From NCBI RefSeq assembly GCF_000146505.1, contig NC_017448.1, positions 2,280,001-2,312,000 of the forward strand: 32,000 nucleotides of DNA, written 5' to 3'. Of the stretch, positions 733 to 32,000 are shown piece by piece (positions within the stretch are counted from its first letter, which is position 1; each line of letters begins with the position of its first letter). Origin of the DNA: Fibrobacter succinogenes subsp. succinogenes S85 (lineage in GTDB: Bacteria > Fibrobacterota > Fibrobacteria > Fibrobacterales > Fibrobacteraceae). The notes beneath the pieces are model-generated. The model did no database searches. It was given only the letters and a program-made list of their open reading frames with translations, and was not told the origin of the DNA. Made by a program: the position numbers and the translations under genes.

Positions 733-791
733 TTCGCGCGCATTTATAAACGGTGAACATTTCGTTTATTGTCACCGTCTTTTAACATTTC

Positions 792-821
792 ATCCGGCCA
801 TTAGGCCGGATTATCTTTTTT
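792..821 (+). terminator. Rho-independent terminator downstream of argA
   Basis: Perfect 8-bp GC-rich stem ATCCGGCC / GGCCGGAT with loop ATTA, followed by TATCTTTTTT. Confidence 0.8.
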
Positions 822-877
822 ATATACTCTGTTCTAAATAGAGTTTGTATATTTACAGAAAATAGGGAGAAGTGAAA

Positions 878-2650: not shown

Positions 2651-2659
2651 AGGTTTGCG

Positions 2660-4057: not shown

Positions 4058-4063
4058 TTGGCG

Positions 4064-5740
4064 ATGAGGATGTGTATGATTTGGCTTCTGTTTGTTTTGT
4101 TGGGTTTGGTGGCGTGCTCTGAAAGCGAGAATCACGTCGTGGCGAGATATGACGATGTCGGGTTTCAGTATTCTCCTACGGCATTGCAGGGCGTAATTGA
4201 ATACGCTCCTCCCTTGGTTCCGGAATATGTGAGAATTGTCCGCGTCGACAGCATGTTGAATTCGAAGGATTCAATCGAGATCATTCTGGATTCAACCTTC
4301 AAGAATTCGTTCGTCTTTAAGATTGCCGAACGCGATTATGAATTCCCTTACGTGAAGATTGTGGGGGTCTTTTCGGATGGGAAAAAGAAGGTGGAGTTTC
4401 CGCAGTATGTGGATTTGCGCGAATCCAACAACGACTTGAAACTGAATTTAAATGCGTCGCTAGCGGCGGGCCGCATTGAAACGCTAGTGCAGAAGGAAGG
4501 CCTTGATTTCTCGGCCGCCGAAGAAAAAGCGTATTCTGAGATGACGGAGATTTTCAAGGCAGATTTTAATGCGTGGAATACGTACCGGTTTAAGGATGTC
4601 CATTACGCGAACCGCTGGGAACTTTATGAACCGTACCTTTACTGCCGTCACGAAATTTCGGATAGCGTGTTTTACAGCGACTACAAGGAGATGAGCGAAT
4701 ATTTTGCCAAGACGGGAAAAGTTGATTCATCGTTGATTGTCCGTGCGGCAGATGCGTGGCTCTCTACATTTGCACCTGCAAAGGATAAAAATGGAAGGCC
4801 GACTTATAAGAGTTTTTCAAGAGATACTTTGTTTGTTAATTATGCCTATTATGGTCGTGTCTTTGAGCGTATATATGGATTGACCATGCCTGCATGTAAT
4901 AGCTATAATCACCAAGTGACGATAGAAAATAAAAGAAGTGAGTTTTATGGTCGCAAGTTTGCTTGCCCCTGCGAATACGATAACTGGGCGTCTATATGCT
5001 TTTACCGGTTGGTGGACCCTATTGAGGATACGCTTGGCCTGTGCCTGTTGCAGACTACTACTGTTGCGGAGTATAACAATGCGTATTACGTGTGCAAGGA
5101 AAAGGATAATGTCTGGAAGGCCGAAAGCGAAATTGATACAGTGCTAAAATACAAGTTCGGTGCATGCGGTAATTCAGAGACGAAAAATCAGTTCTTTTAC
5201 TTGAATGATTCGCTGTTCTTTTGTGAATGCGATGGTGATAATTGTTCCTGGACGGATCGGTTTGTCAACAAGGATATCAACGAAGAGGACTCTCTGTATG
5301 CAGCTGTCCTGAATGCGAGGGGGGTGCAAAAGTTTGGAAAATGCCAAACGAATAATTCCTATTCGGGCGATAAATATCCACTTGACAGCGTCTTTGTCCA
5401 ATGCCAATATGGCAAATGGGGGCGTATTGATTCACTGACGTATTATCTGGGTGGCTGCTCCAGGGATAAAGCGGAACATTTGGGCGTCTACTATTCGTGC
5501 GAAGGGAGCCTGTATCATGAACGTTTCTTGACATGGCAGAATATATGGAAGGAAATTCCTGCTCCGGTATATTATGGGGAAGAATGCTATTATATACATT
5601 TTGGCGAAGTCGTAGAACATGATGGTTTTTCTTTTGTCTGTGAAGCAACGGATGCGTGTAAAAATGAAGATGGTGTTGTAGTGCCTGAAATACGATTTGA
5701 TCCCGGTTGCGATTACTATTGGCAAAAACAAGATAAATGA
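4064..5740 (+). CDS. Lipoprotein, uncharacterised Cys-rich paralog family, copy 3 of 4
   Basis: ATG 4064 lies 9 nt after GAGGAG (4049-4054); the ORF track uses TTG 4058, which abuts the copy-2 stop. Lipobox is LGLVAC|SE. It has the same motif series: ARYDDVGFQYSP, RDYEFPYVKIV, KVEFPQY, AGRIETLV, CRHEISDSVFYS, ADAWLSTF. About five Cys modules. Confidence 0.85.
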   Translation: MRMCMIWLLFVLLGLVACSESENHVVARYDDVGFQYSPTALQGVIEYAPPLVPEYVRIVRVDSMLNSKDSIEIILDSTFKNSFVFKIAERDYEFPYVKIVGVFSDGKKKVEFPQYVDLRESNNDLKLNLNASLAAGRIETLVQKEGLDFSAAEEKAYSEMTEIFKADFNAWNTYRFKDVHYANRWELYEPYLYCRHEISDSVFYSDYKEMSEYFAKTGKVDSSLIVRAADAWLSTFAPAKDKNGRPTYKSFSRDTLFVNYAYYGRVFERIYGLTMPACNSYNHQVTIENKRSEFYGRKFACPCEYDNWASICFYRLVDPIEDTLGLCLLQTTTVAEYNNAYYVCKEKDNVWKAESEIDTVLKYKFGACGNSETKNQFFYLNDSLFFCECDGDNCSWTDRFVNKDINEEDSLYAAVLNARGVQKFGKCQTNNSYSGDKYPLDSVFVQCQYGKWGRIDSLTYYLGGCSRDKAEHLGVYYSCEGSLYHERFLTWQNIWKEIPAPVYYGEECYYIHFGEVVEHDGFSFVCEATDACKNEDGVVVPEIRFDPGCDYYWQKQDK

Positions 5741-5751
5741 TTTTGGAGGAA

Positions 5752-7962
5752 ATGATGAATTTTAAAAGTGTTGTTTTGACGGTGCTTGCGGCTTTGCTTT
5801 TTGTCGCCTGTTCCGATAACGGCGAAGATGCTGTCATTGCCCGATTTGATGAATCTGGGTACCAGTATTCTCCTCGCTCAATAAGTGTTGTTGTTGAGTA
5901 TTTGCCAACGATGAAGCCTTCGGCGGTCCGTGTTGAGGTTGTCGATAGGCAGCTGAATGCCGTGGATACGATAGAACTGTTCAGGGATACTTCATCTTGG
6001 AACGGAAAGCGTTTTACCATGGAGTCTCAGGATCTTGAATATCCGCTTCTGAGGATTGTAACGGAGTTTCCGTATGGCGAAAAATCCAAGATGGAATTTT
6101 CGCAGTACTATCTCCTGAGTTCAAAATACCGCAGCTACAATATCAGCCAGAATATTTTCATGGCACTTGCATCTTCGCGTTTTGAACATTTTGTAAAGAA
6201 GGAAAATTACAGCTTTGCAGATGCCGAGGATACGGTGATGAGTGAGTTGTCAAAAAGATTTAGCAACACTGCGTATAAAATCGTGACGTATGAATTCCCT
6301 TCTTACGATGTTGGGTTTGATGATTTGCTTTTGTACGTGATTTGCAGGCACGAAATTTCGGATAGCCTGTTCTATAGCGATTTCAGGAAGTTGCGTGAGT
6401 CCTATGCCGAGAAGGGTTTTGTTGATACGACGATAGCTATTACGGCTGCCGATGCGTGGCTTTCTACGTTTGAAAATGTCCCTACTACATATTCGCTTGA
6501 AACCGTATTCCGGAGTGTTTCGAGAGATACAGCCGTGGACTTGAAAAATATGCAGAAGGAATTTTTCAGCCAGGTTTATGGAATAAAATTCACGACAGAC
6601 GATTCAATAAAAATTGAGAAAAAGTCCAGTGCTTATTATGGGAAATACTTTTATTATGACAATGACGGCAATAGCATTTATTATGCACAGTGGCGATTCA
6701 AAAATCCTATCGAAGATACCCTTGGACTGTGCCTGCTTAAGACAAAGTCTCTTGTCACGTATAAGGGCGATGAATATTTATGCGAGAGTGGCTCAAACAT
6801 CTGGAGAAAGAATGTGTCCCATGATGAACTGCTAAAAGGCTATTATGATCGTTGTTGGGAATTCAGTAACAATGATGCTATCTATGTCAGGGATTCGTTG
6901 TATGTCTGTGAATGCGACGAGTCTAAAAATTGCGCCTGGAGCGATAAGTATGCCGGTAAGGAAGTGCCTAGAACAGATTCAGCCGCTTTTGCAAAATATA
7001 TTGCAGTAAAAGCGGTCGGCCAATTTGGGAAGTGTTATACCGATGGTTATGGCGCTCTGAAAAAGCTGGATGATGTGTATATACAGTGCATTGACTCCAA
7101 ATGGCTTGAGGTGGATTCGTTGACATACTATATCGGCCATTGCGCAAAGGATCATGTGAAAGGTGAATACCTTGGGATTTATTATGGGTGCCGTGATTTT
7201 GCTGATTACGGTGCTGGCGATACTGTGTGGGCTGAAATACCGTGGTTCGTCTATAAGGATGATTCATGCACTGAGAAAAAACTGAAAAAAGTGAACAGTG
7301 ATGGTAAGAATTATTTTATTTGTGAAAAGAGTGATGGAGAAAAGGATGATTCCAATGCGGAGTACAAATGGCGTAAGCTTGATAGTGCAGAAGCGATTCC
7401 GCCTGTGATTAACATGGATACATGTGAAAATGTGGTTCCTTATAACTATTTGAAAAAGATTTACGATGATGAATATTACATGTGCGAGGATGGTAAGTGG
7501 CATTCTGTAGACAAGGAAAAACTTACTGCTCCGGAAAAGGCGGGAGATATTTGTTCCTGGGCGTTGCTCAATACTGTAAAAAGGTACGATGGAAAATATT
7601 ATCGATGCACCGCGATTAACATGTGGTATGCTGAAGATGTCGTAACTTCAGTCAGCTATGCATATCGCGACAGCCTTGGAAGTTGCGATACTCTTTCGAA
7701 CGTTGGTTTGCACTGGAACGAGGAAACTTCGGCACTTTGGAGCTGCGTAAGATCCGGTGACAAATACCAGTGGGGTAAAATTGAGTTGCAAGAAAGGGAA
7801 GGTGTTTCCTTGCCGGAGAATATTGAATTGAGCCGTTTTGCGGGCGGAACCCGTGTTAGCCCCTTGATTTATACCGTGGATATTGACGGGACTGATTATC
7901 GTTTTTCTGCGCCGATAGCTAGCGTATGGTATTTGACTGGGATTGTAGAACCTGAAGAATAA
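5752..7962 (+). CDS. Lipoprotein, uncharacterised Cys-rich paralog family, copy 4 of 4 (longest, about eight Cys modules)
   Basis: The start is ambiguous. ATG 5737 overlaps the copy-3 stop (ATGA) but gives an acidic N-terminus (MILEEMM). ATG 5752/5755 follows GGAGGA (5745-5750) and gives MMNFKSVVLTVLAALLFVAC|SD, a normal lipoprotein signal. It has the same motif series: ARFDESGYQYSP, QDLEYPLLRIV, KMEFSQY, CRHEISDSLFYS, ADAWLSTF. Confidence 0.85.
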   Translation: MMNFKSVVLTVLAALLFVACSDNGEDAVIARFDESGYQYSPRSISVVVEYLPTMKPSAVRVEVVDRQLNAVDTIELFRDTSSWNGKRFTMESQDLEYPLLRIVTEFPYGEKSKMEFSQYYLLSSKYRSYNISQNIFMALASSRFEHFVKKENYSFADAEDTVMSELSKRFSNTAYKIVTYEFPSYDVGFDDLLLYVICRHEISDSLFYSDFRKLRESYAEKGFVDTTIAITAADAWLSTFENVPTTYSLETVFRSVSRDTAVDLKNMQKEFFSQVYGIKFTTDDSIKIEKKSSAYYGKYFYYDNDGNSIYYAQWRFKNPIEDTLGLCLLKTKSLVTYKGDEYLCESGSNIWRKNVSHDELLKGYYDRCWEFSNNDAIYVRDSLYVCECDESKNCAWSDKYAGKEVPRTDSAAFAKYIAVKAVGQFGKCYTDGYGALKKLDDVYIQCIDSKWLEVDSLTYYIGHCAKDHVKGEYLGIYYGCRDFADYGAGDTVWAEIPWFVYKDDSCTEKKLKKVNSDGKNYFICEKSDGEKDDSNAEYKWRKLDSAEAIPPVINMDTCENVVPYNYLKKIYDDEYYMCEDGKWHSVDKEKLTAPEKAGDICSWALLNTVKRYDGKYYRCTAINMWYAEDVVTSVSYAYRDSLGSCDTLSNVGLHWNEETSALWSCVRSGDKYQWGKIELQEREGVSLPENIELSRFAGGTRVSPLIYTVDIDGTDYRFSAPIASVWYLTGIVEPEE

Positions 7963-8577: not shown

Positions 8578-8617
8578 ATCCCGCGGTTTAAAAAACATCG
8601 CGGGATTCATTTTTTTA
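8578..8617 (+). terminator. Rho-independent terminator between the convergent nitroreductase and FISUMP genes
   Basis: Stem GATCCCGCG / CGCGGGATT(C) followed by ATTTTTTT on the + strand. It overlaps the stop codon of the minus-strand gene. Confidence 0.7.
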
Positions 8618-10783
8618 TTCCTTGACGCAGCGGACGGGAGCCTTGATGTTGTTTATGTCACTGGAGAATTTGCGAGACTTTATTTCGTAGGTTGTTATTT
8701 CCGCTACCGTTATGTCTTTCCATCCGGTATCCTGGATCCAGAAGTACTGATAGTCGCTATTCACATAGACTTCTCTATTAAATAGGCCGGTCTTGGTGAA
8801 ACTCAGTCCATATTTATCCAATCCATCATAGCCAAGGCCCAAGCTATTCATCTGCGAGAACAATGCATTGAACAACTTTCGCGTCGAGGACACACTAACT
8901 TCTTCTGAGTCGTCAGGAGTACTTAGAAGTGCAACTTCGTTATTTGTCGGGAATCTCCATCCCTCCGGGCAGGCTTGTTTCGCAGCATTTATGGTATAGT
9001 AGTAACCAGAATTTTTGCAATTGTCACTTTTGCAGTATTTTTTGTCAACTTCAAAGGTTTCTGGAGTTCCTTGATACTTGAGATTTTCGGCCATCCATGT
9101 TGTTCCTCGGTAGCCAATGGTACGATAGGTGCGGCCATCTCTCGGATCTGAAAACGAGCCGTATTCAATGTTGGGATTGAAATAAAGTTCGTATGGAATT
9201 TCCCAGGATTCGTCTTTGCTTGAATACCACTTTCCGTCTTTGCAGGCATAATTCGTCTTGTATTTTTTGTCCTTTTCATTGGCCGTAGAGTACCTTGCGC
9301 CATTTTCGCAAGTGATTTCGTCAAATTGATGCCATTTGCCTTCATGGCACACATAATACATAGATTGGAGTTCTTGGCTTTCGAAATGTTTGCCCTCTTC
9401 GTCGCATGGGATCTTGTAGGTTTCCCTTTCCAAGCGGGTGGCTAATCCCCAAATGCCGTCCCTACAAATATGGAATGAATCTGGAGCCACGACGCTTTTT
9501 ATCATTTCCCCATTTTTTTCACAGGGAACGTCCGCGACTTCGGCTTCAAAAGGAGTCGCCTTGTCCCATGCATTTAGGGTATATTCTCGATTCCAGAGAT
9601 ATTCCCCGGTCCAGACGGTATCCCTACAAATATAAACCCCTCCAGGATTCAGTTTGCTCTTGAACAATGCTCCTACTGTATCGCACGGGATTTGCTTCAT
9701 TTCGATCTTGACGGTCGTTGTTGAATCCCATCCACTATCGGCTGTGCAAATATAGGAGCGTTCGGGGTTCTTGCGGCTCACGACGAACTTGCCGTCGGCG
9801 TCGCAGGGAATTCCCGACGTTTCGACATCCAGTGGAGAGGCTATTTCCCAATTGGTATAGGTATCGTCATTTATGGTATAATTGTCAGTTATGGTATAAG
9901 CGTAATACCTGCTACTTTTGCATACTAATGAACTGTCTTTGTTGAACATCCCGACCATCGCATCGCTGCAGTACGGCATTCCGGAGCACTTGCGCCAGAT
10001 GTTCTTGATGATGGCTTCCGGGTCCAAAATCTCGTGTTCATCGTATACGCATCCTATGGGCATGAAATTAAAGGCAACTTGGTCAAATGTATCGTATGGC
10101 TTATTACTGAAGCAGTAATTTTTCGGTTCAAGCTTGCCGTCTGCAAAATCGTCGACCAAATACGCTTTCAATTGATCGCTGCCACTTCTGTAAAGGTAGA
10201 ACAAGGTATATTCCATATAATATACCGGCATTTGGCGATCGGCAAGCAGGGAGTCTAGACCGAGTTCTTGCAACAGTTCTTCTGCCGCCTGTATCCAAGC
10301 GGAATCGTGTGCTGCTCCTTGTTTTTCAAGAACCTCGAGACGTTTTTCGACAAAGGCGCTCAGGACTCCATATTTCTCATCTTTCATCATAATGGCTGCG
10401 TACGAGGGCTCCTTGGCGGATCCCGCTTTTATCTTTGCTATTTTCGCAGCGGGCATCGCTTCCAGTAAGTCTGTGTAGACATTGGGGGCTGTTGTGCATC
10501 CGTGATTTTCCGGAATGTGTATTTTGACTTTGTATGAACTTGATGACTCCATTTTCACCGAGGAACTGCTTTCCTCCACGACAGAACTCGAGGATTTGAT
10601 TTCCAAAAGTGAACTAGACGAATTTTCTGAACTGGACGAACTTTCATTAATCGCAATGGCGGGTTCGTCTTCCCAAACGCCGGCGTCCTGTGGGTTTTCG
10701 GTTTCGGAGCAGGCGTCGAAAAATGCGATGGCAAGGAACAATGCGACAATCGGTAGGCTATTCAAAGTTTTCAACATTTTCAT
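8615..10783 (-). CDS. Lipoprotein with C-terminal FISUMP domain (Fibrobacter succinogenes major paralogous domain, TIGR02145 type)
   Basis: Lipobox is AIAFFDAC|SE, followed by a Ser-rich linker (SSSSSENSSSS...SSSS...). There are five repeats of (I/V)PC(D/E)xxG...(Y/F)(I/V)CxxGxW. The C-terminus reads FSDPRDGRTYRTIGYRGTTWMAENLKY...CPEGWRFPTNNE...FWIQD...PVRCVKE, which matches the FISUMP consensus as I know it. Confidence 0.85.
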   Translation of the reverse strand: MKMLKTLNSLPIVALFLAIAFFDACSETENPQDAGVWEDEPAIAINESSSSSENSSSSLLEIKSSSSVVEESSSSVKMESSSSYKVKIHIPENHGCTTAPNVYTDLLEAMPAAKIAKIKAGSAKEPSYAAIMMKDEKYGVLSAFVEKRLEVLEKQGAAHDSAWIQAAEELLQELGLDSLLADRQMPVYYMEYTLFYLYRSGSDQLKAYLVDDFADGKLEPKNYCFSNKPYDTFDQVAFNFMPIGCVYDEHEILDPEAIIKNIWRKCSGMPYCSDAMVGMFNKDSSLVCKSSRYYAYTITDNYTINDDTYTNWEIASPLDVETSGIPCDADGKFVVSRKNPERSYICTADSGWDSTTTVKIEMKQIPCDTVGALFKSKLNPGGVYICRDTVWTGEYLWNREYTLNAWDKATPFEAEVADVPCEKNGEMIKSVVAPDSFHICRDGIWGLATRLERETYKIPCDEEGKHFESQELQSMYYVCHEGKWHQFDEITCENGARYSTANEKDKKYKTNYACKDGKWYSSKDESWEIPYELYFNPNIEYGSFSDPRDGRTYRTIGYRGTTWMAENLKYQGTPETFEVDKKYCKSDNCKNSGYYYTINAAKQACPEGWRFPTNNEVALLSTPDDSEEVSVSSTRKLFNALFSQMNSLGLGYDGLDKYGLSFTKTGLFNREVYVNSDYQYFWIQDTGWKDITVAEITTYEIKSRKFSSDINNIKAPVRCVKE

Positions 10784-12621: not shown

Positions 12622-12676
12622 GGGGTATTTTACTTAGTGGATGGGACCGAGGTTTTGGTTAAGAGGAGTGCATAAA

Positions 12677-13978
12677 ATGAAATCAAAAATCCTAAAGATT
12701 GCTGTTTTGGCAAGTGCCATAGCTTTCATCAACTGCGGTGACGAAACCGCTCTTGCCCCTTACCTGAATGGTGGTGCTCAGGGGGTATCGTCAAGTTCGG
12801 ATGCTGTGGAATCTGAAATCTCTAGCTCTGACGTGGCTCTGCCAGGTTCTAGCGCTAATGCAGAAACGGGCTCGGAAACCTCGTCGAGTTCTGGTGCGGT
12901 TCAGCAGGGCTCCAATACCGATGCTCCCGCTTCCAGCAGCGACGAAAGCTGCTTGGCTTCTAGCCTGCCCGATGCATGCGGCCCGGGAACGAATCCGCTT
13001 CCGACTTCGAGCAGCGATGCTGCCGTAGCTTCTAGCGCCGACGCTCAGAGTGCTACTTCCAGCGCCAATGTGCAGGAGCCGGCATCGAGCTCTAGTGAAG
13101 CTGCAAAACCGGCTAGCTCTTCGAGCGAAAAGAAAGTCGAATCTTCTTCCAGCGAAACTAAGGTGGCATCCAGCTCCAGTGCCGAAGCCCCGAAGGGCAT
13201 TTTCCTTGCTAGTGGCAAGGAAGAAGAAAAGGACCAGATGCAGGTGGAATACAAGACCCGCACCGGCTGGGATGGCGGTGGAATCCTCTCGTATCCGAAG
13301 CAACTTTCTTCGACTCAAAAGCATGGCGTCGTGGTTTGGGGACCGGGTGGCGGTACCGAACCGGGTGCTTATGAAGGCATGATCCGCAGGCTCGCTTCTC
13401 ACGGCTTCGTGGTGATCGCTCTTAAGGAATCTCCGGGTGATGCATCCCAGGCCATAAAGGCTTTGGATTGGCTCGACAAGCAGAACAAGGATCAGAATAG
13501 CCCGCTGTTTGGCAAGCTCGACATGAATACGGTCGGTTGCTCCGGTCACTCCATGGGTGGTCTTGAATCTGAACAGGCTGTCATCAAGGACAAGCGCGTG
13601 CTTACGGCGTTCCTCAACAACAGTGGCGACTGGAATGGTGCAGGTGCAAAGAACGTGGCGACGGACCGTACGATTGCAATTCTCTTCGGTGAAGTCGGCA
13701 TGGAAAAGGACAACGCCAAGAACGACTACAACAATTCTGGCGTGAAGGCTCCGGCTTGCCTTATCGAAATGACGGGTGGCCCGCGTAACTCCGAAGGCGG
13801 TTATGGTCACGGTTCTGGCTCTTGGGATGGCATGGCAGCAACGGTTGCCTGGATGCGCTGGCATCTCGGTGGCGAAACGGAACGCAAGGCCGATTTCGTG
13901 GGTACGACCGGCAAGTATATCGATGGCAGCATCATCGGTAAGCAGGGCAAATGGAAGACCCAGTGTAAGAACTTCTAA
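12677..13978 (+). CDS. Secreted alpha/beta-hydrolase lipoprotein (cutinase / PETase / dienelactone-hydrolase-like esterase), copy 1
   Basis: ATG 12677 lies 8 nt after AAGAGGAG. The signal is MKSKILKIAVLASAIAFINC|GDE. A Ser/Ala-rich linker of about 150 aa follows. The catalytic domain has VVVWGPGGGTEPGAY, the nucleophile elbow GCSGHSMGG, GYGHGSG (a possible His) and the tail AWMRWHLGGE...QCKNF. Confidence 0.7.
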   Translation: MKSKILKIAVLASAIAFINCGDETALAPYLNGGAQGVSSSSDAVESEISSSDVALPGSSANAETGSETSSSSGAVQQGSNTDAPASSSDESCLASSLPDACGPGTNPLPTSSSDAAVASSADAQSATSSANVQEPASSSSEAAKPASSSSEKKVESSSSETKVASSSSAEAPKGIFLASGKEEEKDQMQVEYKTRTGWDGGGILSYPKQLSSTQKHGVVVWGPGGGTEPGAYEGMIRRLASHGFVVIALKESPGDASQAIKALDWLDKQNKDQNSPLFGKLDMNTVGCSGHSMGGLESEQAVIKDKRVLTAFLNNSGDWNGAGAKNVATDRTIAILFGEVGMEKDNAKNDYNNSGVKAPACLIEMTGGPRNSEGGYGHGSGSWDGMAATVAWMRWHLGGETERKADFVGTTGKYIDGSIIGKQGKWKTQCKNF

Positions 13979-14198: not shown

Positions 14199-15440
14199 AT
14201 GAAATCTAAACTCTTAAAAACTGTGGTGTTGGCCAGTTCCTTGGTCTTCCTGAATTGCGGTGACGATGTCACGTCTGCAATCAACAACTACGCTGCCGGA
14301 TTCTCGTCCAGCTCTGCTGAAGAAGTTCAGCCGGGTACGAGCTCTGACTCTCAGGGTGATGCTGGCACAGAAATTTCTAGCTCTGCAGCTCAGCAGAATC
14401 AAGACGCAATCCTTCCGGGTTCCAGTGCGGATGTTGGGCCGCAGGTGGAATCTAGCAGTACTGTCGCTCCGGGTGCAGAATCCTCTGCTGATGTTGCCGC
14501 AAGCTCTAGCTCTGTCGATGCTCCGGCATCGAGCTCCGAAAAAGCTCTGGTCGTAAGTTCCAGTTCGGTGAGTGCTCCTGCTGTAAGCTCCTCGAGTTCC
14601 GAAGAAAAGGTGGAATCCAGTTCTAGTGAAGAAGCAAAGCCGAAGGGCGTATTCCTTGCCGAAGGCTCGGACGAAACTAAGGACCAGATGCGAGTCAAGT
14701 ACATTGAACGCACCGGTCACGATGGCGGTGGAATCCTTGCTTATCCGGAACAGCTTTCTAACGACCAGAAGCACGCTGTTGTCGTGTGGGGGCCGGGTGG
14801 CGGCACGGAACCGGGTGCATACGGTGGAATTATCCGTCGTCTCGCATCTCACGGCTTTGTCGTGATTGCACTCCGTGAATCTCCGGGTAACGCAACCCAG
14901 GCAATTCCTGCCCTCAACTGGCTCGAAAAGAAGAACAAGGATCCGAATGATCCTCTGTACCAGAAGCTTGATATGACGAAGGTCGGTTGCTCCGGTCACT
15001 CCATGGGCGGTCTCGAATCTGAACAGGCCCTCATCAAGGACGATCGCGTGATTACCGCTATGCTCAACAACAGTGGTGACCTCGGACATACGGCTATGTC
15101 TCAGGTTTCTGCAAGCAAGACTGTCGGTATTGTTTATGGCGAAGGCGGCATGGAACGCCCGAACGCTGAAGCAGACTATAACAACCAGGGCGTCAAGGCT
15201 CCGGCTTGCCTCATCAAGATGACGGGCGGTCAGGGCAATGAATGCCAGCAGGGCGAATGCGGCTGGGGCCATGGTTCCGGTCCGTGGGGCGGCATGGCTG
15301 CAACGGTTGCCTGGATGCGTTGGCACCTCGGTGGCGAAGACTTCCGCAAGGCAGATTTCGTCGGTACGAGCGGCCGTTACATCAATGGTGAAATCATCGG
15401 TGAACGTGGCCATTGGAAAGGCCAGTGCAAGAACTTCTAA
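14199..15440 (+). CDS. Secreted alpha/beta-hydrolase lipoprotein (cutinase / PETase-like esterase), copy 2 (tandem paralog)
   Basis: The signal is MKSKLLKTVVLASSLVFLNC|GDD, followed by a Ser-rich linker. The catalytic domain is roughly 70% identical by eye to copy 1, with the same GCSGHSMGG, AWMRWHLGGE and QCKNF end. It carries an extra Cys-containing insert, GQGNECQQGECGWGHG. Confidence 0.7.
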   Translation: MKSKLLKTVVLASSLVFLNCGDDVTSAINNYAAGFSSSSAEEVQPGTSSDSQGDAGTEISSSAAQQNQDAILPGSSADVGPQVESSSTVAPGAESSADVAASSSSVDAPASSSEKALVVSSSSVSAPAVSSSSSEEKVESSSSEEAKPKGVFLAEGSDETKDQMRVKYIERTGHDGGGILAYPEQLSNDQKHAVVVWGPGGGTEPGAYGGIIRRLASHGFVVIALRESPGNATQAIPALNWLEKKNKDPNDPLYQKLDMTKVGCSGHSMGGLESEQALIKDDRVITAMLNNSGDLGHTAMSQVSASKTVGIVYGEGGMERPNAEADYNNQGVKAPACLIKMTGGQGNECQQGECGWGHGSGPWGGMAATVAWMRWHLGGEDFRKADFVGTSGRYINGEIIGERGHWKGQCKNF

Positions 15441-25927: not shown

Positions 25928-27091
25928 CTAGAAGATGAGGGCTTTAGGGAATCCTTCGTGCCACTTTTCGGCATTTGGTTCGTAGGCGTCAAATCCGCCT
26001 GTGTAGCCAAATCCCCAGTAGTGGAACGACATACCGTTTTTGACAGCGGCCTGTACTGCCTTCTTTGCCCATGTTGCTTTATATTGATCTGAGGGCCAAA
26101 CGCCTTGTTCCGGTTCTCCGTTTTGGTTGTACCATGTGCATTGCCCCATGTCGCTACCGCCGGCCACGCCGAATTCACCCATGTTCAACGGAACTTGGTC
26201 TATTCCGTTCACGTCCGGGTAAAGCTTATAGGCCAGCCCAACGTATGATAACAGGTCTTCGTCCGCTGTAGAGACGTATGCGGCATCGCCAAGGCATTTG
26301 TTACCGTGTTGACCTTGATGGCTGTATGTGTACGGTTCGTAATAGTGGCCACTGAAGATGATGTTCCCGTCTTGCGGCAAGTGGAGCATCGAGAGGTCAG
26401 CAAACTTTGCGGCATGGTAGGCTTCAAACATAATCGTCTTGCCCGGAGCGGCTGCACGGATGACCTTGTAGGCGTCATTCATCAGCTGGTCCACGCGCTC
26501 GGCGTTCGGGATGATCGGTTCGTTCAGGATTTCAAGAACTAGCATATTGTCGGGGAATGCGTTCATGGCCGTGGCAACCTGCGCCCAAAGAGCAAGGAAG
26601 TGAGCCTTTTCAGCTTCGTATTCGGTGGGGTTGTATGTACAGCCGTTACCGCCGCCACCTGCGCAGTTCAATTCTGTGTAGTGGTGGAAGTTTACGACGA
26701 CAGCAAGGCCGTTGGCAATAGCGAGATTGATGTCTTCAATGACTCCCGCAAGGCGGTTCGGGTCCACAGTATGGGTCGAGTAGTCAGAACCATTTTGCCA
26801 GCGGACCGGGATACGCACGGAATTGAAGCCTGCCGCCTTGATGGTGGCGAAGTCCTGGTCACGGATGGGGTTGCTCCAGGCGCCATCATCGGAACCGTCG
26901 GAATCCCAGGAGTTACCCAGGTTGATGCCGCGCCCAAGGAGCGCATTCATCGTTCTTCCCAAGGTGTAGTCTACGGGGACGGCCGTGCTCGTGTTGCCCT
27001 TGCCGGCCGATGTCGGTATTGTTGCCGAGCCACTGTCGCATGCCCAGAAGGCACATCCGATTGCCATTGCTGAAAGAATCTTTTTAATCAT
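25928..27091 (-). CDS. Glycoside hydrolase family 5 endoglucanase (cellulase), lipoprotein/secreted
   Basis: ATG 27091 is used because the ORF-track start at 27103 is a TTG. The signal is MIKKILSAMAIGCAFWAC|DS. GH5 landmarks: GINLGNSWD, VRIPVRW, VNFHHY, LEILNEP (acid/base Glu), SGHYYEPY and NMGEFG (nucleophile Glu). Confidence 0.88.
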   Translation of the reverse strand: MIKKILSAMAIGCAFWACDSGSATIPTSAGKGNTSTAVPVDYTLGRTMNALLGRGINLGNSWDSDGSDDGAWSNPIRDQDFATIKAAGFNSVRIPVRWQNGSDYSTHTVDPNRLAGVIEDINLAIANGLAVVVNFHHYTELNCAGGGGNGCTYNPTEYEAEKAHFLALWAQVATAMNAFPDNMLVLEILNEPIIPNAERVDQLMNDAYKVIRAAAPGKTIMFEAYHAAKFADLSMLHLPQDGNIIFSGHYYEPYTYSHQGQHGNKCLGDAAYVSTADEDLLSYVGLAYKLYPDVNGIDQVPLNMGEFGVAGGSDMGQCTWYNQNGEPEQGVWPSDQYKATWAKKAVQAAVKNGMSFHYWGFGYTGGFDAYEPNAEKWHEGFPKALIF

Positions 27092-27181
27092 GGTAACCCC
27101 CAAAAGGTTATGAGCTTAAATGCGTGTTCTCAAAATCTATATAAAACAAAAAATAGAAAAACAAAAACATGCTTATCTTAT

Positions 27182-27198
27182 GTTTACGCTTGAGTCCA
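27182..27198. promoter_or_regulatory. Copy 1 of a perfect 17-bp direct repeat GTTTACGCTTGAGTCCA
   Basis: It is identical to 27264-27280. It lies 91-107 nt upstream of the GH5 ATG (minus strand), in a 326-bp AT-rich divergent intergenic region. Confidence 0.4.
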
Positions 27199-27263
27199 TT
27201 GTGAGCATCGTCAAAAAATTTAATTTGTAAACATTAAGAAACATTACAAATGAAAAAATTTCC

Positions 27264-27280
27264 GTTTACGCTTGAGTCCA
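27264..27280. promoter_or_regulatory. Copy 2 of a perfect 17-bp direct repeat GTTTACGCTTGAGTCCA
   Basis: It is identical to 27182-27198, 82 bp start to start. It lies 138-154 nt upstream of ATG 27418. Confidence 0.4.
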
Positions 27281-27417
27281 GCGTCTATGTGGCTTAACAA
27301 GCGGTATTCCGTTGATACATCTAGCTTTGCAAAGCCTTTTTTGCAAAAGAGTGGAGCGAAAATTCCCAAAAACAAGCTATATTGTAGATGATCCGAATTT
27401 GGAGAATTGTACCTATT

Positions 27418-28161
27418 ATGAATGGAAACTTAAAAAAAGCCATTTGGAAGTCCGCTCTAGCGGCGATGCTTCTTGCTTCATCTTCTTTCGCTGGCTACGG
27501 TTTTAGCGATTACCGCGACCGCGACCAGTCCCACTTTGTCATGAAGGATCCTAAACCGTTCCGTCCTGATAAGGAAGTTGTCACCGTTGTCATGCGTGAA
27601 GCAATTCCGCGTGGTGGTGGTTACACGTACCAGTATCCGCGTGAAAACCCCGAACCGGTACTCACGGATAAGTATGCCATGGAAGGCGCTCTCTCCATGG
27701 AAATTGAACTTATCGCGAGTGACTATTCCGGTGTCGCAATCTGTATTGCGGGTTCCGTGGACTTGACTCCGTATCTCGAAGAAGGTGTTCTCGAATTTTG
27801 GATCAAGGGCGCCCAGGGTGGTGAAAACGCATTGTTCGTGCTCGTTGACGATGGCGTGAAGAGCAATGGCGAATCCCTCCAGGTGAAGCTCCGCTCCAAG
27901 AGCCTTGGTGAAATTACGACAGAATGGAAGCACTTCAGCATTCCTCTGAAGCTCTTCGGCAATACCGGTGTTTACTGGGATGCAAAGAACACGCGCGAAG
28001 TGATGCTCCCGTTCTCATGGTCCAACTTCAAGGGTTTCCGTCTTGAAGTCCGCAAGGATGAAAACGAATCCTTCAAGGTCTGGATTGACGATATTGTGAT
28101 TAAGAAGCATGGCAAGCCGTACGAAGGCCCGGCTCACTATCCGTTCCGCAACGAGATTTAA
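27418..28161 (+). CDS. Secreted hypothetical protein, possible CBM-like beta-sandwich
   Basis: ATG 27418 gives the signal MNGNLKKAIWKSALAAMLLASSSFA|GYG. The body resembles jelly-roll carbohydrate-binding modules: GALSMEIELIASDYSGVAICI, GVLEFWIKGAQGGENALFVLVDDG, EWKHFSIPLKLF and FKGFRLEV...FKVWIDDIVIKK. The fold assignment is a guess. Confidence 0.55.
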   Translation: MNGNLKKAIWKSALAAMLLASSSFAGYGFSDYRDRDQSHFVMKDPKPFRPDKEVVTVVMREAIPRGGGYTYQYPRENPEPVLTDKYAMEGALSMEIELIASDYSGVAICIAGSVDLTPYLEEGVLEFWIKGAQGGENALFVLVDDGVKSNGESLQVKLRSKSLGEITTEWKHFSIPLKLFGNTGVYWDAKNTREVMLPFSWSNFKGFRLEVRKDENESFKVWIDDIVIKKHGKPYEGPAHYPFRNEI

Positions 28162-28170
28162 GAGGATTTT

Positions 28171-30453
28171 ATGCGCAAAACAGTTTCTTCCCTTTTACTA
28201 GCGTCTAGCCTCGGTGCTGCATGGGCTCTTCCTCCGCAGTTGCAGCTTGATTCCCTTCACGCTTCGTTGGATACTCTTTCCAACAACATGGAATCGACTC
28301 TTCTCGGCAAGGACGATCTGCCACTGGCAGTCTCCGGTTATATGGCTTTCCGTTTGAAGAATTTCCACTATTCCGAACAGAGCCCGTGGGTCCGCGATGA
28401 CCAGGCACGTACGAGCGTTGACGCTTTGTTGAACGTGAACATCGTCGCCATGCCGAACTCCTACATTACGCTGTTTACGAACCTCATGTTCCCGTTTGAC
28501 TTGAGCGGTTTCTTCACGAATAAACTCGCCAAGAACCCGACTGAAGCTCCGGGCAACAACGATGAACGCGTCTTGTTCGACCACTCTACCGACTACTATG
28601 CATCGACCATCAACGAAGAAATGAACGTCGGTGTCGATATCCGTGCCGGTGTGTTCGGTGCTTACGTTACTGCAGGCGGTGTTATCTGGGCAAACGCCTC
28701 TCCGCTTACCATGTGGGAACGTGAAACGAACCCGCGCTTTGTGTGGCAGTACGAACTCTTCGAAGACGAAAAGACCGTTTCTACTTACTATAAGGAAAAG
28801 GCATTCAAGCCGGTCAAGGAAGGTGGTCGTGCTTTCTGGACGAACCGCTCTTTCGGTGGCGTCTTTGCGAACTTCTACCAGCTCCCGTACGACATGAAGG
28901 CTCAGTTCCTCGTGTCCCAGCCGGCAGATGCTGACATGGGTACCCGTGACGGTCTCCGCATGTACGGTGGCCAGCCGGGCGAACTCGAAATGATGGGTGG
29001 CTATGATTTGCGCGGTACCGTCCTTCATGGCCGTATCGCCAAGGAAAAGATTGCCGACAACCTGACTGTCGGTGTGAACTACATGGGCGTTACCTTCGAC
29101 AAGGACATCATCTATGAAGATGAATTCCGTACGCAGTGGATTACCCAGAGCGAAGGCGGCCTTCCGGTCCTCCTCAATACTCACGTGATTACTGCCGACG
29201 TCAAGGGCAATATCACCCCGAAGCTCTTCTTGATGGGCGATATCGGTGTCAGCATCACGGACTCCACGACGTTTGTCCCGGATCCGGACGCAGCTGATTA
29301 TTCTCTCAACGCTGATGGTTCCGTCAATATGAATTCCGGTTACTCCAGCCGCAAGGAAGGCTACGTTTCTACGGTTAACTCCCCGAAGGTTGGCGCTTAT
29401 ATCAAGGCACAGAGCAAGTACGTTGAAGGCTGGCCGATGACTGCAGAACTCGTGTTCTTCCAGCCGGGCTTCTACTCTCCGTATTCTTTGACGAACCCGT
29501 CCCGCTTCCCGGGCTGGCGCAAGAACGAAGCCTACCTCAACGGTGGCGCTCTCCGCTACTCCCCGAACATGACCGGTATCAACTTCAAGTTGGAACCGAG
29601 CTTCAACCGCGGTTACTTTGACTTCCAGTACGCCCAGCATCGTCAGATCGAAGCTGGTCCGGACGTGATTGCATTCAACTACCGTCTGAACGGCCGTAAC
29701 ATGTGGGAAAGCTCCAACTCCTGGACCAAGCACAAGCCGCTCTTTGTGGCTGACTCTGGTAACGCTTCCTGGTGTGGCTATATCAACCGTGTCGGTGCCA
29801 GCAAGAACTCCTCTGACGGTGTCAAGATGTACCGCCAGCGCGGTGGTCTCTATGGTGGTACCTGGGAACTTTGGGAATCCTTCGCCGCATTTGAAAATGG
29901 TGACCAGGTTGCCAAGGGCGAAATTCCGGAACATGCCAAGTGGTCTTCTTACCTCTCCTTCATGGGTGGTTACGATATCGGCCACTGGATCGGCACTGAC
30001 CGCAACGTCATGCTGACGGGCTTCTTTGCCCTCTCCGGTGTTTCCACTGCATTTACCCCGCTTGCCGTTTCTGAAAAGCAGTCCAACATGCTCTTGACGA
30101 GCTTCTTCGGTCAGATTGAACCGACCGTCGCCGTGACTCCGACCTTCCACATGGTGGGTATCGTCGGTCTCGAAACGTTCAGGTCTGACAAGGCTTACTT
30201 GATGCTCACCGCCGATAACGGTACCAGCAAGACTGCCAAGAATACCTATTACTACGAAGTGAACACCAGCTACTACAAGAAGGCTCCGATCAATTACAAG
30301 GACTTCGCAATTGGCCTTGGCTTTGACTGGGACTTCTCTGACCGCGTGGGTCTCCACTTCCGCTACAAGTTCATGACGCACTCTGACGAAACCGTTCCTG
30401 ACAATGATTGGCATTCCCATTACATTGCTGCCGAAACCAAGGCATGGTTCTAA
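28171..30453 (+). CDS. Large predicted outer-membrane beta-barrel protein, hypothetical (760 aa)
   Basis: AGAGGA lies 6 nt upstream, and the gene starts 9 nt after the previous gene. Signal peptide is MRKTVSSLLLASSLGAAWA|LP. Alternating hydrophobic strands run throughout. The end is OMP-type: FAIGLGFDWDFSDRVGLHFRYKFMTH...HYIAAETKAWF, with a terminal Phe. Codons 11-750 contain no in-frame TTA, CTA or TCA. Confidence 0.65.
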   Translation: MRKTVSSLLLASSLGAAWALPPQLQLDSLHASLDTLSNNMESTLLGKDDLPLAVSGYMAFRLKNFHYSEQSPWVRDDQARTSVDALLNVNIVAMPNSYITLFTNLMFPFDLSGFFTNKLAKNPTEAPGNNDERVLFDHSTDYYASTINEEMNVGVDIRAGVFGAYVTAGGVIWANASPLTMWERETNPRFVWQYELFEDEKTVSTYYKEKAFKPVKEGGRAFWTNRSFGGVFANFYQLPYDMKAQFLVSQPADADMGTRDGLRMYGGQPGELEMMGGYDLRGTVLHGRIAKEKIADNLTVGVNYMGVTFDKDIIYEDEFRTQWITQSEGGLPVLLNTHVITADVKGNITPKLFLMGDIGVSITDSTTFVPDPDAADYSLNADGSVNMNSGYSSRKEGYVSTVNSPKVGAYIKAQSKYVEGWPMTAELVFFQPGFYSPYSLTNPSRFPGWRKNEAYLNGGALRYSPNMTGINFKLEPSFNRGYFDFQYAQHRQIEAGPDVIAFNYRLNGRNMWESSNSWTKHKPLFVADSGNASWCGYINRVGASKNSSDGVKMYRQRGGLYGGTWELWESFAAFENGDQVAKGEIPEHAKWSSYLSFMGGYDIGHWIGTDRNVMLTGFFALSGVSTAFTPLAVSEKQSNMLLTSFFGQIEPTVAVTPTFHMVGIVGLETFRSDKAYLMLTADNGTSKTAKNTYYYEVNTSYYKKAPINYKDFAIGLGFDWDFSDRVGLHFRYKFMTHSDETVPDNDWHSHYIAAETKAWF

Positions 30454-30468
30454 GGGAGGATGCTAAAG

Positions 30469-32000
30469 ATGAATATGAAAATGAAAAATATTTTGATCGC
30501 CCTTCTTACTGCATCGGTTGCCGCATCGGCTTCTGCTGTTGCTGACAATCAAAAGGCTTTGCAGGCAAAGGCTGATAGCGCCAATGCAAAGCGCGGTGTT
30601 GAAATTGGTGGTAGCATTCGTGCTGTTGCACAGCGTTCCAGCTTCTCTACGGACCAGGACGTGCATAGCGTCAACAAGATGCCGAATGTCGAACACAACG
30701 AATATGTGAGTGCTGACTTGAGCTTCGGCTTCCGTCCGTACGAAAACGTTCGCGCCAACGTGATTATGCGCCTTGGCGGCGGCATGCAGGAATACTTTGC
30801 CGCAGCAGCAAAGACTCTCGAAGCCAAGTGGCTCAATGTCGAAGGCAACATCGGCAAGAACTTCTACTGGACCGTGGGTGACTTCCGCTCGGCAATCTCT
30901 CCGCTCTCCATTTACAATCCCGGTATCGACATCTTGTACGAACCGACGATTTTCGCCCGCAAGCGCCACATGGCCCAGAAGGAACAGCTCCTCGAAGGCA
31001 ACAAGCGCAACCTCCAGGGTATTAACCTCCAGTTCCGTCAGGAAATCGACCCGATGATCGGTGAACTCCGCGCCGAGGCCTTCCTCGCCCGCGTGAACCG
31101 CGTGTCGGTCCTTGACTTTACCGGTGCTGAAGGCAATATCCTTCCGGGTGACGAAATCGCTGGTACGTCTCTTGCCTCTGCAACGGACAAGTGGCTCGTC
31201 GGTGGCAACATCGAACTCTTGCCGGTTCAGAAGAATGTGTATGTCGGTGTGACCCCGATGCTCATTTTCGATAATGAAAATTCGAAGTCCTACACTTACC
31301 GCCATCCGAACCGCGACCCGCAGGGCTTTGTTCCGGGTGATGCAGAAAACGCATACGAACGTCAGGAAATCAACCCGTACGAATACGGTCCGCAGAACAC
31401 GTTTGTGTTGAGCGCCCGTGCCGGTGCTGACGTGGGTGGTCTCGTGAAGCAGAAGGGTCTTTCTGCAGACGTGGTCGCCGAATACGCCATGTCCGTCAAC
31501 AAGGTGAAGACTGCCGCTTACGTCAATGATCTCGGTCTTCCGGTTCCTGAAACCGAAGAATCCATTAACGGTTCTGCCTTGCTCGCCACCGTGAACGCTG
31601 GCTACGAGATCGAAAACTCATGGAGCGCAGGACTTAGCTTGGACGTGGTCATGAACGACGAAAAGTGGTTCAACAACCTTGCCCAGTCCCCGAGCTTCTT
31701 CGCCCAGCGCGTGTTGAACTCCGACAAGGACGGAAACACGGTCAAGTACGGCGTGAACTCCCCGCTCTACTCTACCTTTGACGCTCTCTACAACTACTCC
31801 CCGAAGTTTACTCCGGTGGCCCGTACTCTCGGTACTGATGACAACGCCTTCATGGATGGTCAGTCCAAGAGCTACAACATCGCTCCGTACAACAAGAACT
31901 CCTGGGGTTCCAACGTCTATTCCGCAGCTCAGCTCGCTCTCATCAACCAGATGATCGATCCTGCTATCCAGGCAACCTTGCCGAACGGCCTTGCTACTGC
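30469..32000 (+). CDS. Large secreted / outer-membrane hypothetical protein, N-terminal 510 codons (3' end outside the window)
   Basis: This gene is absent from the ORF track because no stop occurs before the window end. ATG 30469 lies 9 nt after AAGGGAGGA (30452-30460). The signal is MNMKMKNILIALLTASVAASASA|VAD. I read the frame codon by codon to base 32000 and found no stop. The listed minus-strand ORF 30463..31305 is its codon-aligned shadow. Confidence 0.8.
   Translation, partial: MNMKMKNILIALLTASVAASASAVADNQKALQAKADSANAKRGVEIGGSIRAVAQRSSFSTDQDVHSVNKMPNVEHNEYVSADLSFGFRPYENVRANVIMRLGGGMQEYFAAAAKTLEAKWLNVEGNIGKNFYWTVGDFRSAISPLSIYNPGIDILYEPTIFARKRHMAQKEQLLEGNKRNLQGINLQFRQEIDPMIGELRAEAFLARVNRVSVLDFTGAEGNILPGDEIAGTSLASATDKWLVGGNIELLPVQKNVYVGVTPMLIFDNENSKSYTYRHPNRDPQGFVPGDAENAYERQEINPYEYGPQNTFVLSARAGADVGGLVKQKGLSADVVAEYAMSVNKVKTAAYVNDLGLPVPETEESINGSALLATVNAGYEIENSWSAGLSLDVVMNDEKWFNNLAQSPSFFAQRVLNSDKDGNTVKYGVNSPLYSTFDALYNYSPKFTPVARTLGTDDNAFMDGQSKSYNIAPYNKNSWGSNVYSAAQLALINQMIDPAIQATLPNGLAT

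Follow-up and report, generated by a model that had tools for sequence, protein, structure and literature searches.

A six-gene operon of Fibrobacter succinogenes that joins three very large outer-membrane barrels to secreted carbohydrate-binding proteins: a predicted glucan-capture complex

The subject of this study is a gene cluster at the right-hand end of a 32,000-nucleotide stretch of the Fibrobacter succinogenes subsp. succinogenes S85 genome (NC_017448.1, positions 2,280,001 to 2,312,000), which we refer to throughout as the window. The cluster, FSU_2007–2012, is a six-gene unit that encodes a secreted protein with a family 30 carbohydrate-binding module (CBM30), three very large outer-membrane β-barrels, a lipoprotein and a protein related to family 18 glycoside hydrolases (GH18-like), and it is cut by the window edge. 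These proteins have been present in proteomic lists since 2007. F. succinogenes ranks with the most effective of the known cellulose degraders and, to our knowledge, has neither a cellulosome nor Sus-type loci. The route by which cellodextrins cross its outer membrane is described in published work as unknown, and no MalA-like barrel has been found. Here we describe the operon and its candidate role in glucan capture.

Organization of the locus

By exact sequence match, the window falls at ∼1.85–1.87 Mb of the S85 entry CP001792.1. Coordinates beyond the window end were taken from the S85 record L001, and locus tags are paired as FSU_/Fisuc_ (FSU_2008, for example, is Fisuc_1526). The first gene, FSU_2007/Fisuc_1525 (27418–28161, + strand), encodes the secreted, non-catalytic CBM30 protein of 247 residues; an alternative ATG at 27388 gives 257 residues. 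It is followed on the same strand by barrel 1, FSU_2008/Fisuc_1526 (28171–30453; 760 residues ending in ...AAETKAWF), and by barrel 2, FSU_2009/Fisuc_1527, which begins at 30469 and reaches the window edge at 32000 after 510 codons of a full length of 720. Past the window lie barrel 3, FSU_2010/Fisuc_1528 (L001 14477–16618; 713 residues), the lipoprotein FSU_2011/Fisuc_1529 (L001 16631–17290; 219 residues, lipobox LSAC) and, at a distance of ∼3.5 kb from the edge of the window, the GH18-like protein FSU_2012/Fisuc_1530 (L001 17308–18360; 350 residues). The intergenic gaps within the unit are 9–17 nt, and genes 2 and 3, which follow gaps of 9 and 15 nt, are preceded by AAGAGG and AGGGAGGA, respectively. 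The coordinates, both of these gaps with their ribosome-binding sites and a 326-bp divergent spacer had been given correctly in the initial annotation of the window, which also recognized that gene 3 runs off its end. The three-gene module proposed there must be enlarged to six genes, with a third barrel, the lipoprotein and a GH18-like protein that lacks its catalytic residue.

The barrel genes are almost free of the codons TTA, CTA and TCA, as had been claimed. These make up 2 of the 761 codons of gene 2, both near its 5′ end, and 1 of 721 in gene 3, compared with 20 of 1691 in five adjoining genes, and a clean run of 740 codons would arise at that background rate with P ∼1.5e-4. Because the three codons are nearly missing from the sense frame, long antisense open reading frames lie opposite the barrel genes (28198–30420, − strand, 740 residues; 30463–31305, −, 280 residues; L001 14507–16645, −, 712 residues). 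We considered these as genes and rejected them as by-products of codon bias.

The CBM30 and GH18-like proteins

Gene 1 had been described as a CBM-like module, and it proves to be a true CBM30 protein. Its match to the Pfam family PF21582 scores 65.9 bits, above the cut-off of 27 (E = 5.7e-18), and the Clostridium thermocellum CBM30 structures 2C24 and 1WMX are matched with E = 4.2e-6. The best Pfam match covers residues 99–226, leaving the first ∼100 residues outside that match. The protein carries a type-I signal peptide, cleaved between ...SSSFA and GYG, and no catalytic domain. Binding of cellulose or another β-glucan by this protein is a putative function, predicted from its module. It is also reportedly a cellulose-binding protein, a label that goes back to the source annotation and to the reference columns of later papers citing Jun et al. 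2007.

The last gene of the operon encodes a member of the GH18 fold family (Pfam PF00704, with a score of 109.1 bits where the cut-off is 29.6) that is annotated as a chitinase. Its catalytic block, DGVELDWQ, aligns with DGIDLDWE of the chitinase 5GZU, and the acid/base Glu is absent in all 76 of the 76 FSU_2012 orthologues, where it is replaced by Gln in most and otherwise by Thr, Val, Ile or Leu. Many of them have lost the initial Asp of the motif too. FSU_2012 thus departs from the D-x-x-D-x-D-x-E signature of active GH18 chitinases and, as it lacks the catalytic Glu, is most likely a chitinase-like lectin rather than a chitinase. Reading the protein as a probable lectin affects the published links between it and chitinase activity or peptidoglycan turnover. 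In keeping with a lectin, FSU_2012 is also said to be cellulose-binding, under the name CBP-9, through later papers citing Jun et al. 2007. The accessions A7UG43/47/48/63 reportedly belong to the series cited to that study, to which FSU_2009 and FSU_2010 are said to be tied by the series alone.

Three very large outer-membrane barrels

Genes 2 and 3 and the barrel 3 gene gave no meaningful sequence match in Pfam, NCBIfam or the PDB, whether searched as single sequences or as profiles, in agreement with the earlier statement that genes 2 and 3 belong to no named family. The FSU_2008 family is narrow, with 89 matching representatives among 1.84 billion proteins, and in the available literature no paper discusses FSU_2008–2010 in its main text. 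The very large barrels FSU_2008–2010 define a new outer-membrane protein family.

Barrel 1 has a signal peptide (cleaved between AWA and LPPQ), an N-terminal amphipathic helix at residues 22–41 and a C-terminal Phe. Its AlphaFold2 model, built from a diverse alignment, has a predicted local distance difference test score (pLDDT) of 74.8 and a predicted template-modeling score (pTM) of 0.77, and shows long antiparallel strands, ∼24 when counted from the alternation of short turns and long loops. The hydropathy alternation of these strands is 2.3, compared with 1.25 for shuffled sequence. Barrel 2 has a comparable layout, with a signal peptide (between ASA and VADNQ), a helix at residues 22–38 and ∼22 long strands, in a model of low confidence (pLDDT 55, pTM 0.59) that comes from a shallow alignment. 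For barrel 3 the strand number is given as ∼22. All orthologues of each barrel end in Phe and the signal peptide is conserved in all three families, so that signal peptide, strands, C-terminal Phe and recovery in outer-membrane fractions together identify the proteins as outer-membrane barrels in the generic sense. The assignment of gene 2 as an outer-membrane barrel on the basis of its signal peptide, strand patterns and C-terminus is thereby upheld by modeling, structural comparison and fractionation, and full-length gene 3 is likewise barrel-like by AlphaFold2 and Foldseek. Counting strands in the models gave the large barrels described above, with the reservation that the count for barrel 2 comes from a low-confidence model.

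Conservation within the barrels is highest in long loops, which are rich in aromatic residues and modeled with low or moderate confidence. In barrel 1 this is loop 3 (residues 175–225, window ∼28693–28845), with the sequence SPLTMWERE...KEGGRAFW, and in barrel 2 it is a poorly modeled insert of ∼110 residues (402–509, window ∼31672–31995) containing NNLAQSPSFFAQRILNSD...YGVNSPLYSTFDALYN. These loops may serve as constriction loops, plugs or sugar-binding tracks.

Barrels 2 and 3 are paralogues (BLASTP 1e-23, 23% identity). BLASTP of FSU_2008 against FSU_2009 and FSU_2010 gave nothing convincing, and whole-length hhalign between barrel 1 and the other two reached a probability of 33% with the alignment out of register. 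A global comparison of N-terminal profiles reached 51% with E = 2.4e-5 and colinear motifs. Three motifs are common to the barrel families: K-x-D-S-[LI] in the helix that follows the signal peptide, SPLT[IL][WY] where loop 3 begins, and one that is YEP-like. These results are suggestive of descent of all three barrels from one ancestor. The representative P0429, which has a weak C-terminal match, was examined and is not a relative of barrels 2 and 3.

Searches for domains of known transport systems were negative. The barrels, the lipoprotein and the CBM30 protein have no match to the plug domain PF07715, to PF00593 or to the SusD families PF07980, PF12741 and PF14322 in Pfam at E values up to 1 or in NCBIfam. 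In Pfam the barrels also lack the SLH domain PF00395 and an OmpA-like peptidoglycan-binding domain, and have no match to the LamB, OprB, OprD/ChiP or KdgM porins. When the models of barrels 1 and 2 were compared with the PDB using Foldseek, only outer-membrane barrels were found among the matches listed (the best 50 of 341 and the best 50 of 334 significant matches), with template-modeling (TM) scores of 0.15–0.38. These include TonB-dependent transporters, the FimD/PapC ushers, MtrB, AlgE, SlpA, OmpM and porins. Since only barrels are matched, the fold class is clear; since the TM-scores are low, there is no close structural relative.

The structural matches raise the question of whether the barrels form an export machine, for the secretion of a polysaccharide in the manner of AlgE or BcsC, or for that of the CBM30 and GH18-like proteins of the operon itself. 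The top matches of barrel 2 are indeed the alginate exporter AlgE and usher pores. The two secreted proteins reach the medium, and FSU_2012 has no annotated C-terminal signal of the type IX secretion system, nor was one detected in Pfam scans of the CBM30 and GH18-like proteins. A GT2 glycosyltransferase is encoded 3 kb upstream. The matches to AlgE, FimD, MtrB and MOMP are low and generic, however (TM 0.25–0.37), and by Pfam the operon lacks a synthase, a copolymerase, a TPR scaffold, a chaperone and POTRA domains. The GT2 gene lies on the other strand, behind lpxA and the GH5 gene, and is missing from distant loci, and polysaccharide-export operons have a single barrel rather than three. We consider an export function highly improbable.

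Conservation of the operon and its distant relatives

A scan of 185,579 species-level genomes returned 134 loci, and we examined the best 80. All belong to Fibrobacter, Hallerella or other Fibrobacteraceae/Fibrobacterota bins. In every sufficiently long locus the order is a glycoside hydrolase family 5 (GH5) gene on the opposite strand, then CBM30, 760-, 720- and 713-residue barrels, (lipoprotein) and GH18-like protein, with median gaps of 9, 14, 15, 12 and 14 nt over ∼80 loci. The co-occurrence that had been suggested as a check is found among these Fibrobacteraceae loci, with gene order kept in all those of full length and GH5 wherever the upstream flank is present. The CBM30 protein is the most conserved product of the operon, with a median global identity to S85 of 82% (77 loci), followed by the 760-residue barrel (69%), the GH18-like protein (65%), the 720- and 713-residue barrels (55 and 54%) and the lipoprotein (28%).

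Beyond this group, FSU_2008 homologues with 22–31% identity occur on metagenome contigs in the order binder, 760-type barrel, 720-type barrel, (713-type barrel), and the nature of the binder varies. It is a lone CBM30 protein in L087, L088/89 and L091. In L093 (925–2730) it is a 601-residue fusion of a GH18-like domain (DGIDFAWD, again without the Glu) and a CBM30. A 1062-residue CBM30-CBM30-CBM11 protein, whose modules are those found at the N-terminus of Cel51A, is placed after two barrels in L094 (7402–10590), a locus that directly follows ATPase genes of an Opp-type ATP-binding cassette (ABC) transporter. In L095/96 the binder is a 1564-residue malectin-domain protein (L095 5293–9987). An adjacent carbohydrate-binding protein is thus present in 6 of the 7 distinct distant contexts, and the seventh, L090, is truncated where its contig ends. 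The distant loci do not retain GH5; one of them has a GH20 gene upstream and another a GH12-CBM9 protein nearby.

Because the binder but not GH5 is kept in these loci, the constant association is that of barrels with a sugar binder and not of barrels with a cellulase. The fusion in L093 provides Rosetta-stone-type evidence that the two binders of the Fibrobacter operon act together. Judging from these gene orders, the linkage of barrel and binder is ancient. The glycan-capture role proposed in the initial annotation gains support from this pattern, in which a carbohydrate-binding protein, of one type or another, stands next to the distant barrel homologues.

Two observations on the records themselves can be added. 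Six of them (L040, L042, L044, L046, L047 and L048) are titled Oscillospiraceae, Alistipes onderdonkii, Senegalimassilia, Eggerthellaceae, Methanomethylophilaceae (an archaeon) and Sodaliphilus, and hold a complete Fibrobacter-type locus with lpxA, GT2 and poly(A) polymerase flanks; the foreign titles are most likely a binning or labeling error. In L090, a DUF3450-ExbB-ExbB-ExbD-TonB cluster (201–4144) lies ∼3.7 kb upstream of the barrel genes, although the barrels have no plug. TonB-dependent import of cellodextrins is a published proposal.

Expression and localization

In chemostat RNA-seq data (PMC6204037), Fisuc_1525–1530 all fall in constitutive cluster 1, with mean regularized-log (rlog) values of 11.35, 11.85, 11.65, 11.87, 10.13 and 11.65 and coefficients of variation of 1.5–2%. 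The second to fourth of these values show that the three barrels have near-equal mRNA levels, and the text of that study places Fisuc_1530 above the 90th percentile. The prediction of high expression is borne out, with rlog values of ∼10.1–11.9 in a constitutive cluster, whereas induction on cellulose, a further expectation of the initial annotation, is not seen. In batch cultures (PMC4668043), reads per kilobase per million (RPKM) on cellulose and glucose were 981 and 731 for Fisuc_1525, 427 and 382 for Fisuc_1526 and 762 and 657 for Fisuc_1529, changes of at most 1.3-fold. FSU_2005 and FSU_2007–2012 were all detected in the envelope proteome (PMC6851124), FSU_2007 on all substrates and FSU_2009 with 21 peptides and a predicted outer-membrane location; there the operon proteins change by −1.32- to +1.11-fold between cellulose and glucose. 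The operon encodes an abundant, always-on outer-membrane unit. Cel51A, the main cellulase, and cellodextrin phosphorylase are equally constitutive in this obligate glucan specialist, so the lack of induction on cellulose does not discriminate between functions.

In the fractionation data the barrels are found in both the outer-membrane and medium fractions and the lipoprotein only in the outer membrane, for the GH18-like protein the medium holds ∼6-fold more than the outer membrane, and the CBM30 protein is found in the extracellular medium only. We also considered FSU_2012 as a peptidoglycan tether and rejected this role on the basis of the same ∼6-fold excess in the medium.

Constitutive expression above the 90th percentile, with little change among glucose, cellobiose and cellulose, is what would be expected if the operon encoded a housekeeping complex, either a major porin or a structural assembly serving diffusion, envelope stability or vesicle biogenesis, with the binders as accessories. 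The strong codon bias and the presence of the barrels in the medium fraction, which holds vesicles, fit such a role, and Foldseek also matches major porins as well as trimeric outer-membrane proteins with N-terminal stalks, such as OmpM and SlpA. In addition, FSU_2404 and FSU_0230, 'membrane proteins' of the same accession series, were reclassified in a 2025 study as major oligomeric outer-membrane proteins of the PopA superfamily; FSU_2008–2010 do not appear in the available passages of that study. That a binder stays next to the barrels down to 22–31% identity while its type changes is not what one would expect of a housekeeping porin, nor would a GH18-CBM30 fusion be expected in the logic of its operon. 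The restriction of the family to 89 representatives and the lack of SLH or OmpA-like domains in the barrels also argue against this explanation, which we regard as rather unlikely.

The distribution of the binders bears on another role, in which the barrels and the lipoprotein would only anchor an adhesin, displaying the CBM30 protein and the GH18-like lectin so as to attach the cell and its vesicles to cellulose, without transport. In its favor, this organism cannot degrade cellulose without adhering to it, no part of the operon is more conserved than the CBM30 protein, and the long conserved barrel loops could act as plugs. FSU_2012 is reported to bind cellulose. Three barrels of 22–24 strands far exceed the needs of an anchor, however, and most of the binder protein is recovered free in the medium and not with the outer membrane. 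The position of the L094 locus directly downstream of Opp-type ABC ATPase genes suggests a context of uptake instead. That the operon is an adhesin anchor and nothing else seems to us distinctly unlikely.

A model for glucan capture

We give an even chance to the proposal that the six-gene operon encodes a plug-less, non-Sus surface complex for the capture, and possibly the uptake, of glucans. In such a complex the three barrels would assemble in fixed stoichiometry into a hetero-oligomer, perhaps held together by their N-terminal helices, which carry heptad-spaced hydrophobic residues together with the common motif and recall the stalks of the trimeric OmpM and SlpA. At the cell surface, the CBM30 protein and the GH18-like lectin would attach to the barrels and retain cellulose chains or cellodextrins. 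The wide barrels would let oligosaccharides diffuse to the periplasm, where further handling would fall to cellodextrin phosphorylase, periplasmic glucanases and Opp-type ABC importers. The logic would be Sus-like, with a barrel and surface glycan binders, but built of unrelated parts and without energization by TonB.

Several results weigh against this proposal. The hetero-oligomer is one that we infer only from the order of the genes, their similar expression levels and the motif in the helices, and the kinship of barrel 1 with the other two barrels is no firmer than suggestive. The model of barrel 2 is of low confidence, and loop 175–225 of barrel 1 and the 402–509 insert of barrel 2 may occlude the lumen. 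The binders are largely released to the medium, so that stable docking is no more than presumed, and neither RNA nor protein of the operon rises appreciably on cellulose.

A more specific form of the glucan-capture proposal can be advanced tentatively, as a possibility with less in its favor than against it: the three paralogues, plug-less and of 22–24 strands, may represent an undescribed class of importer, a hetero-oligomer providing Fibrobacter and related bacteria of the FCB group with a TonB-independent route for cellodextrins or even single glucan chains. It is similarly conceivable, if doubtful, that in this importer an exchangeable secreted binder (CBM30, GH18-like, CBM11 or malectin) sets the substrate specificity.

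In the literature available we found no account of the operon, the barrel family, the inactive GH18 or the rule that joins barrel and binder. The operon is at present the leading candidate for the means by which Fibrobacter, the cellulose specialist of the rumen, captures and perhaps takes up cellodextrins, and a locus that is conserved throughout the family makes this step accessible to experiment.

The divergent GH5 gene and other features of the window

The GH5 endoglucanase gene FSU_2005/Fisuc_1523 (25928–27091, − strand; 387 residues) is a divergent neighbor that lies outside the operon; its open reading frame extends from 27103 and the annotated start is at 27091. The product belongs to GH5 by its match to Pfam PF00150 (113 bits against a cut-off of 23.5, 2e-32), and cellulase activity is listed for Fisuc_1523 in Table 2 of PMC3079729. 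Its N-terminus, MIKKILSAMAIGCAFWAC followed by DSGS, holds two candidate lipobox cysteines, and the enzyme may be lipid anchored instead of plainly secreted. GH5 falls in cluster 11 of the chemostat data, with lower and variable expression, as does GH9 (PMC6204037). In the batch cultures the RPKM on cellulose and glucose was 314 and 102 for GH5, a change of ∼3-fold, and 53 and 22 for GH9 (PMC4668043), and the envelope protein change of GH5 between cellulose and glucose was +1.38-fold (PMC6851124). The genetic link to a cellulase that had been proposed for the operon therefore stands in part: the GH5 position is kept in every Fibrobacteraceae locus with the upstream flank present, but the gene is separately regulated and is missing from the distant loci.

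The 326-bp spacer between the GH5 and CBM30 genes (27092–27417) contains a perfect 17-nt direct repeat, GTTTACGCTTGAGTCCA, at 27182–27198 and 27264–27280, 82 bp apart, with 2 matches found against 0.08 expected by chance. It also carries two short inverted repeats. Only within the F. succinogenes clade is the pair of direct repeats kept with this spacing; it may represent the binding site of a regulator or a promoter element that has been duplicated. A consensus scan for promoters and terminators gave scores no better than those of shuffled sequence, save for a strong terminator 3′ of GH9.

The GH9 gene FSU_2013/Fisuc_1531 (L001 18590–20350) is a separate transcription unit. We rejected it as a member of the operon because it is preceded by a 230-bp gap, has an rlog of 8.5 compared with ∼11.7 for the operon and falls in a different expression cluster, and because its product is periplasmic and the gene is present in the F. 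succinogenes clade only.

Elsewhere in the window, four tandem paralogous lipoprotein genes at 872–7962 (592, 465, 560 and 741 residues) encode a lipobox and an N-terminal ARYDxDGxQYSP motif; they have no Pfam match, and their region is lower in GC content (0.41–0.45) and has an unusually strong GC skew of +0.15 to +0.27. Two adjoining genes at 12641–13978 and 14199–15440 encode esterase domains resembling polyethylene terephthalate (PET) hydrolases, of the dienelactone hydrolase/cutinase type, and near them are genes for a Fib_succ_major-domain protein (8615–10783, − strand) and a DUF4423 protein.

Comparison with known systems

The FimD/PapC ushers are among the structural matches of the barrels at TM-scores of 0.22–0.31, but the barrels have no match to the usher domain PF00577 in Pfam and there is no chaperone or pilin gene in the operon. 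Veillonella OmpM1 and Deinococcus SlpA are similar in their succession of signal peptide, N-terminal helix and barrel and in being abundant major outer-membrane proteins. They differ in having SLH domains, coiled-coil stalks and strand numbers of 16 and 30, whereas the helix of the operon barrels is ∼20 residues long, and they are homotrimers, whereas a hetero-oligomer of three gene products is proposed here.

LamB, ChiP, OprB and CymA resemble the operon barrels as plug-less barrels proposed to pass oligosaccharides, and a chitoporin and OprB are among the Foldseek matches. These sugar porins have 14–18 strands and ∼350–450 residues and form homotrimers or monomers, compared with ∼22–24 strands and 713–760 residues for the operon barrels, and they are matched with query-normalized TM-scores of 0.2–0.3 and without any sequence or Pfam match. 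The operon barrels likewise fall outside the wider range of classical and sugar-specific porins (LamB, OprB, OprD/ChiP, KdgM), which have 12–18 strands and ∼230–450 residues.

The partners of the barrels have relatives of their own. CBM30 modules are also present in Cel51A (CelF) of F. succinogenes and CelJ of C. thermocellum, whereas the gene 1 protein is a stand-alone secreted protein that has no catalytic domain and is conserved far above its neighbors. FSU_2012 shares a GH18 fold with a replaced catalytic Glu with the chitinase-like lectins YKL-40/CHI3L1, and CHI3L1 structures are among its PDB matches. It differs from them in being bacterial, co-operonic with barrels and, by the listing of later papers, reportedly a binder of cellulose and not of chitin.

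The SusC/SusD systems differ from the operon in several respects. The plug, the TonB-dependent receptor and SusD domains are absent from the operon, which has three barrels instead of one; its binders are soluble, Sec-secreted proteins and not lipoproteins, and its expression is constitutive rather than substrate induced. The likeness lies in the arrangement, in which a barrel is co-encoded with glycan binders and a lipoprotein beside glycoside hydrolases, in organisms of the same Fibrobacteres–Chlorobi–Bacteroidetes (FCB) group, and in which the type of binder changes across lineages while the barrel core is kept.

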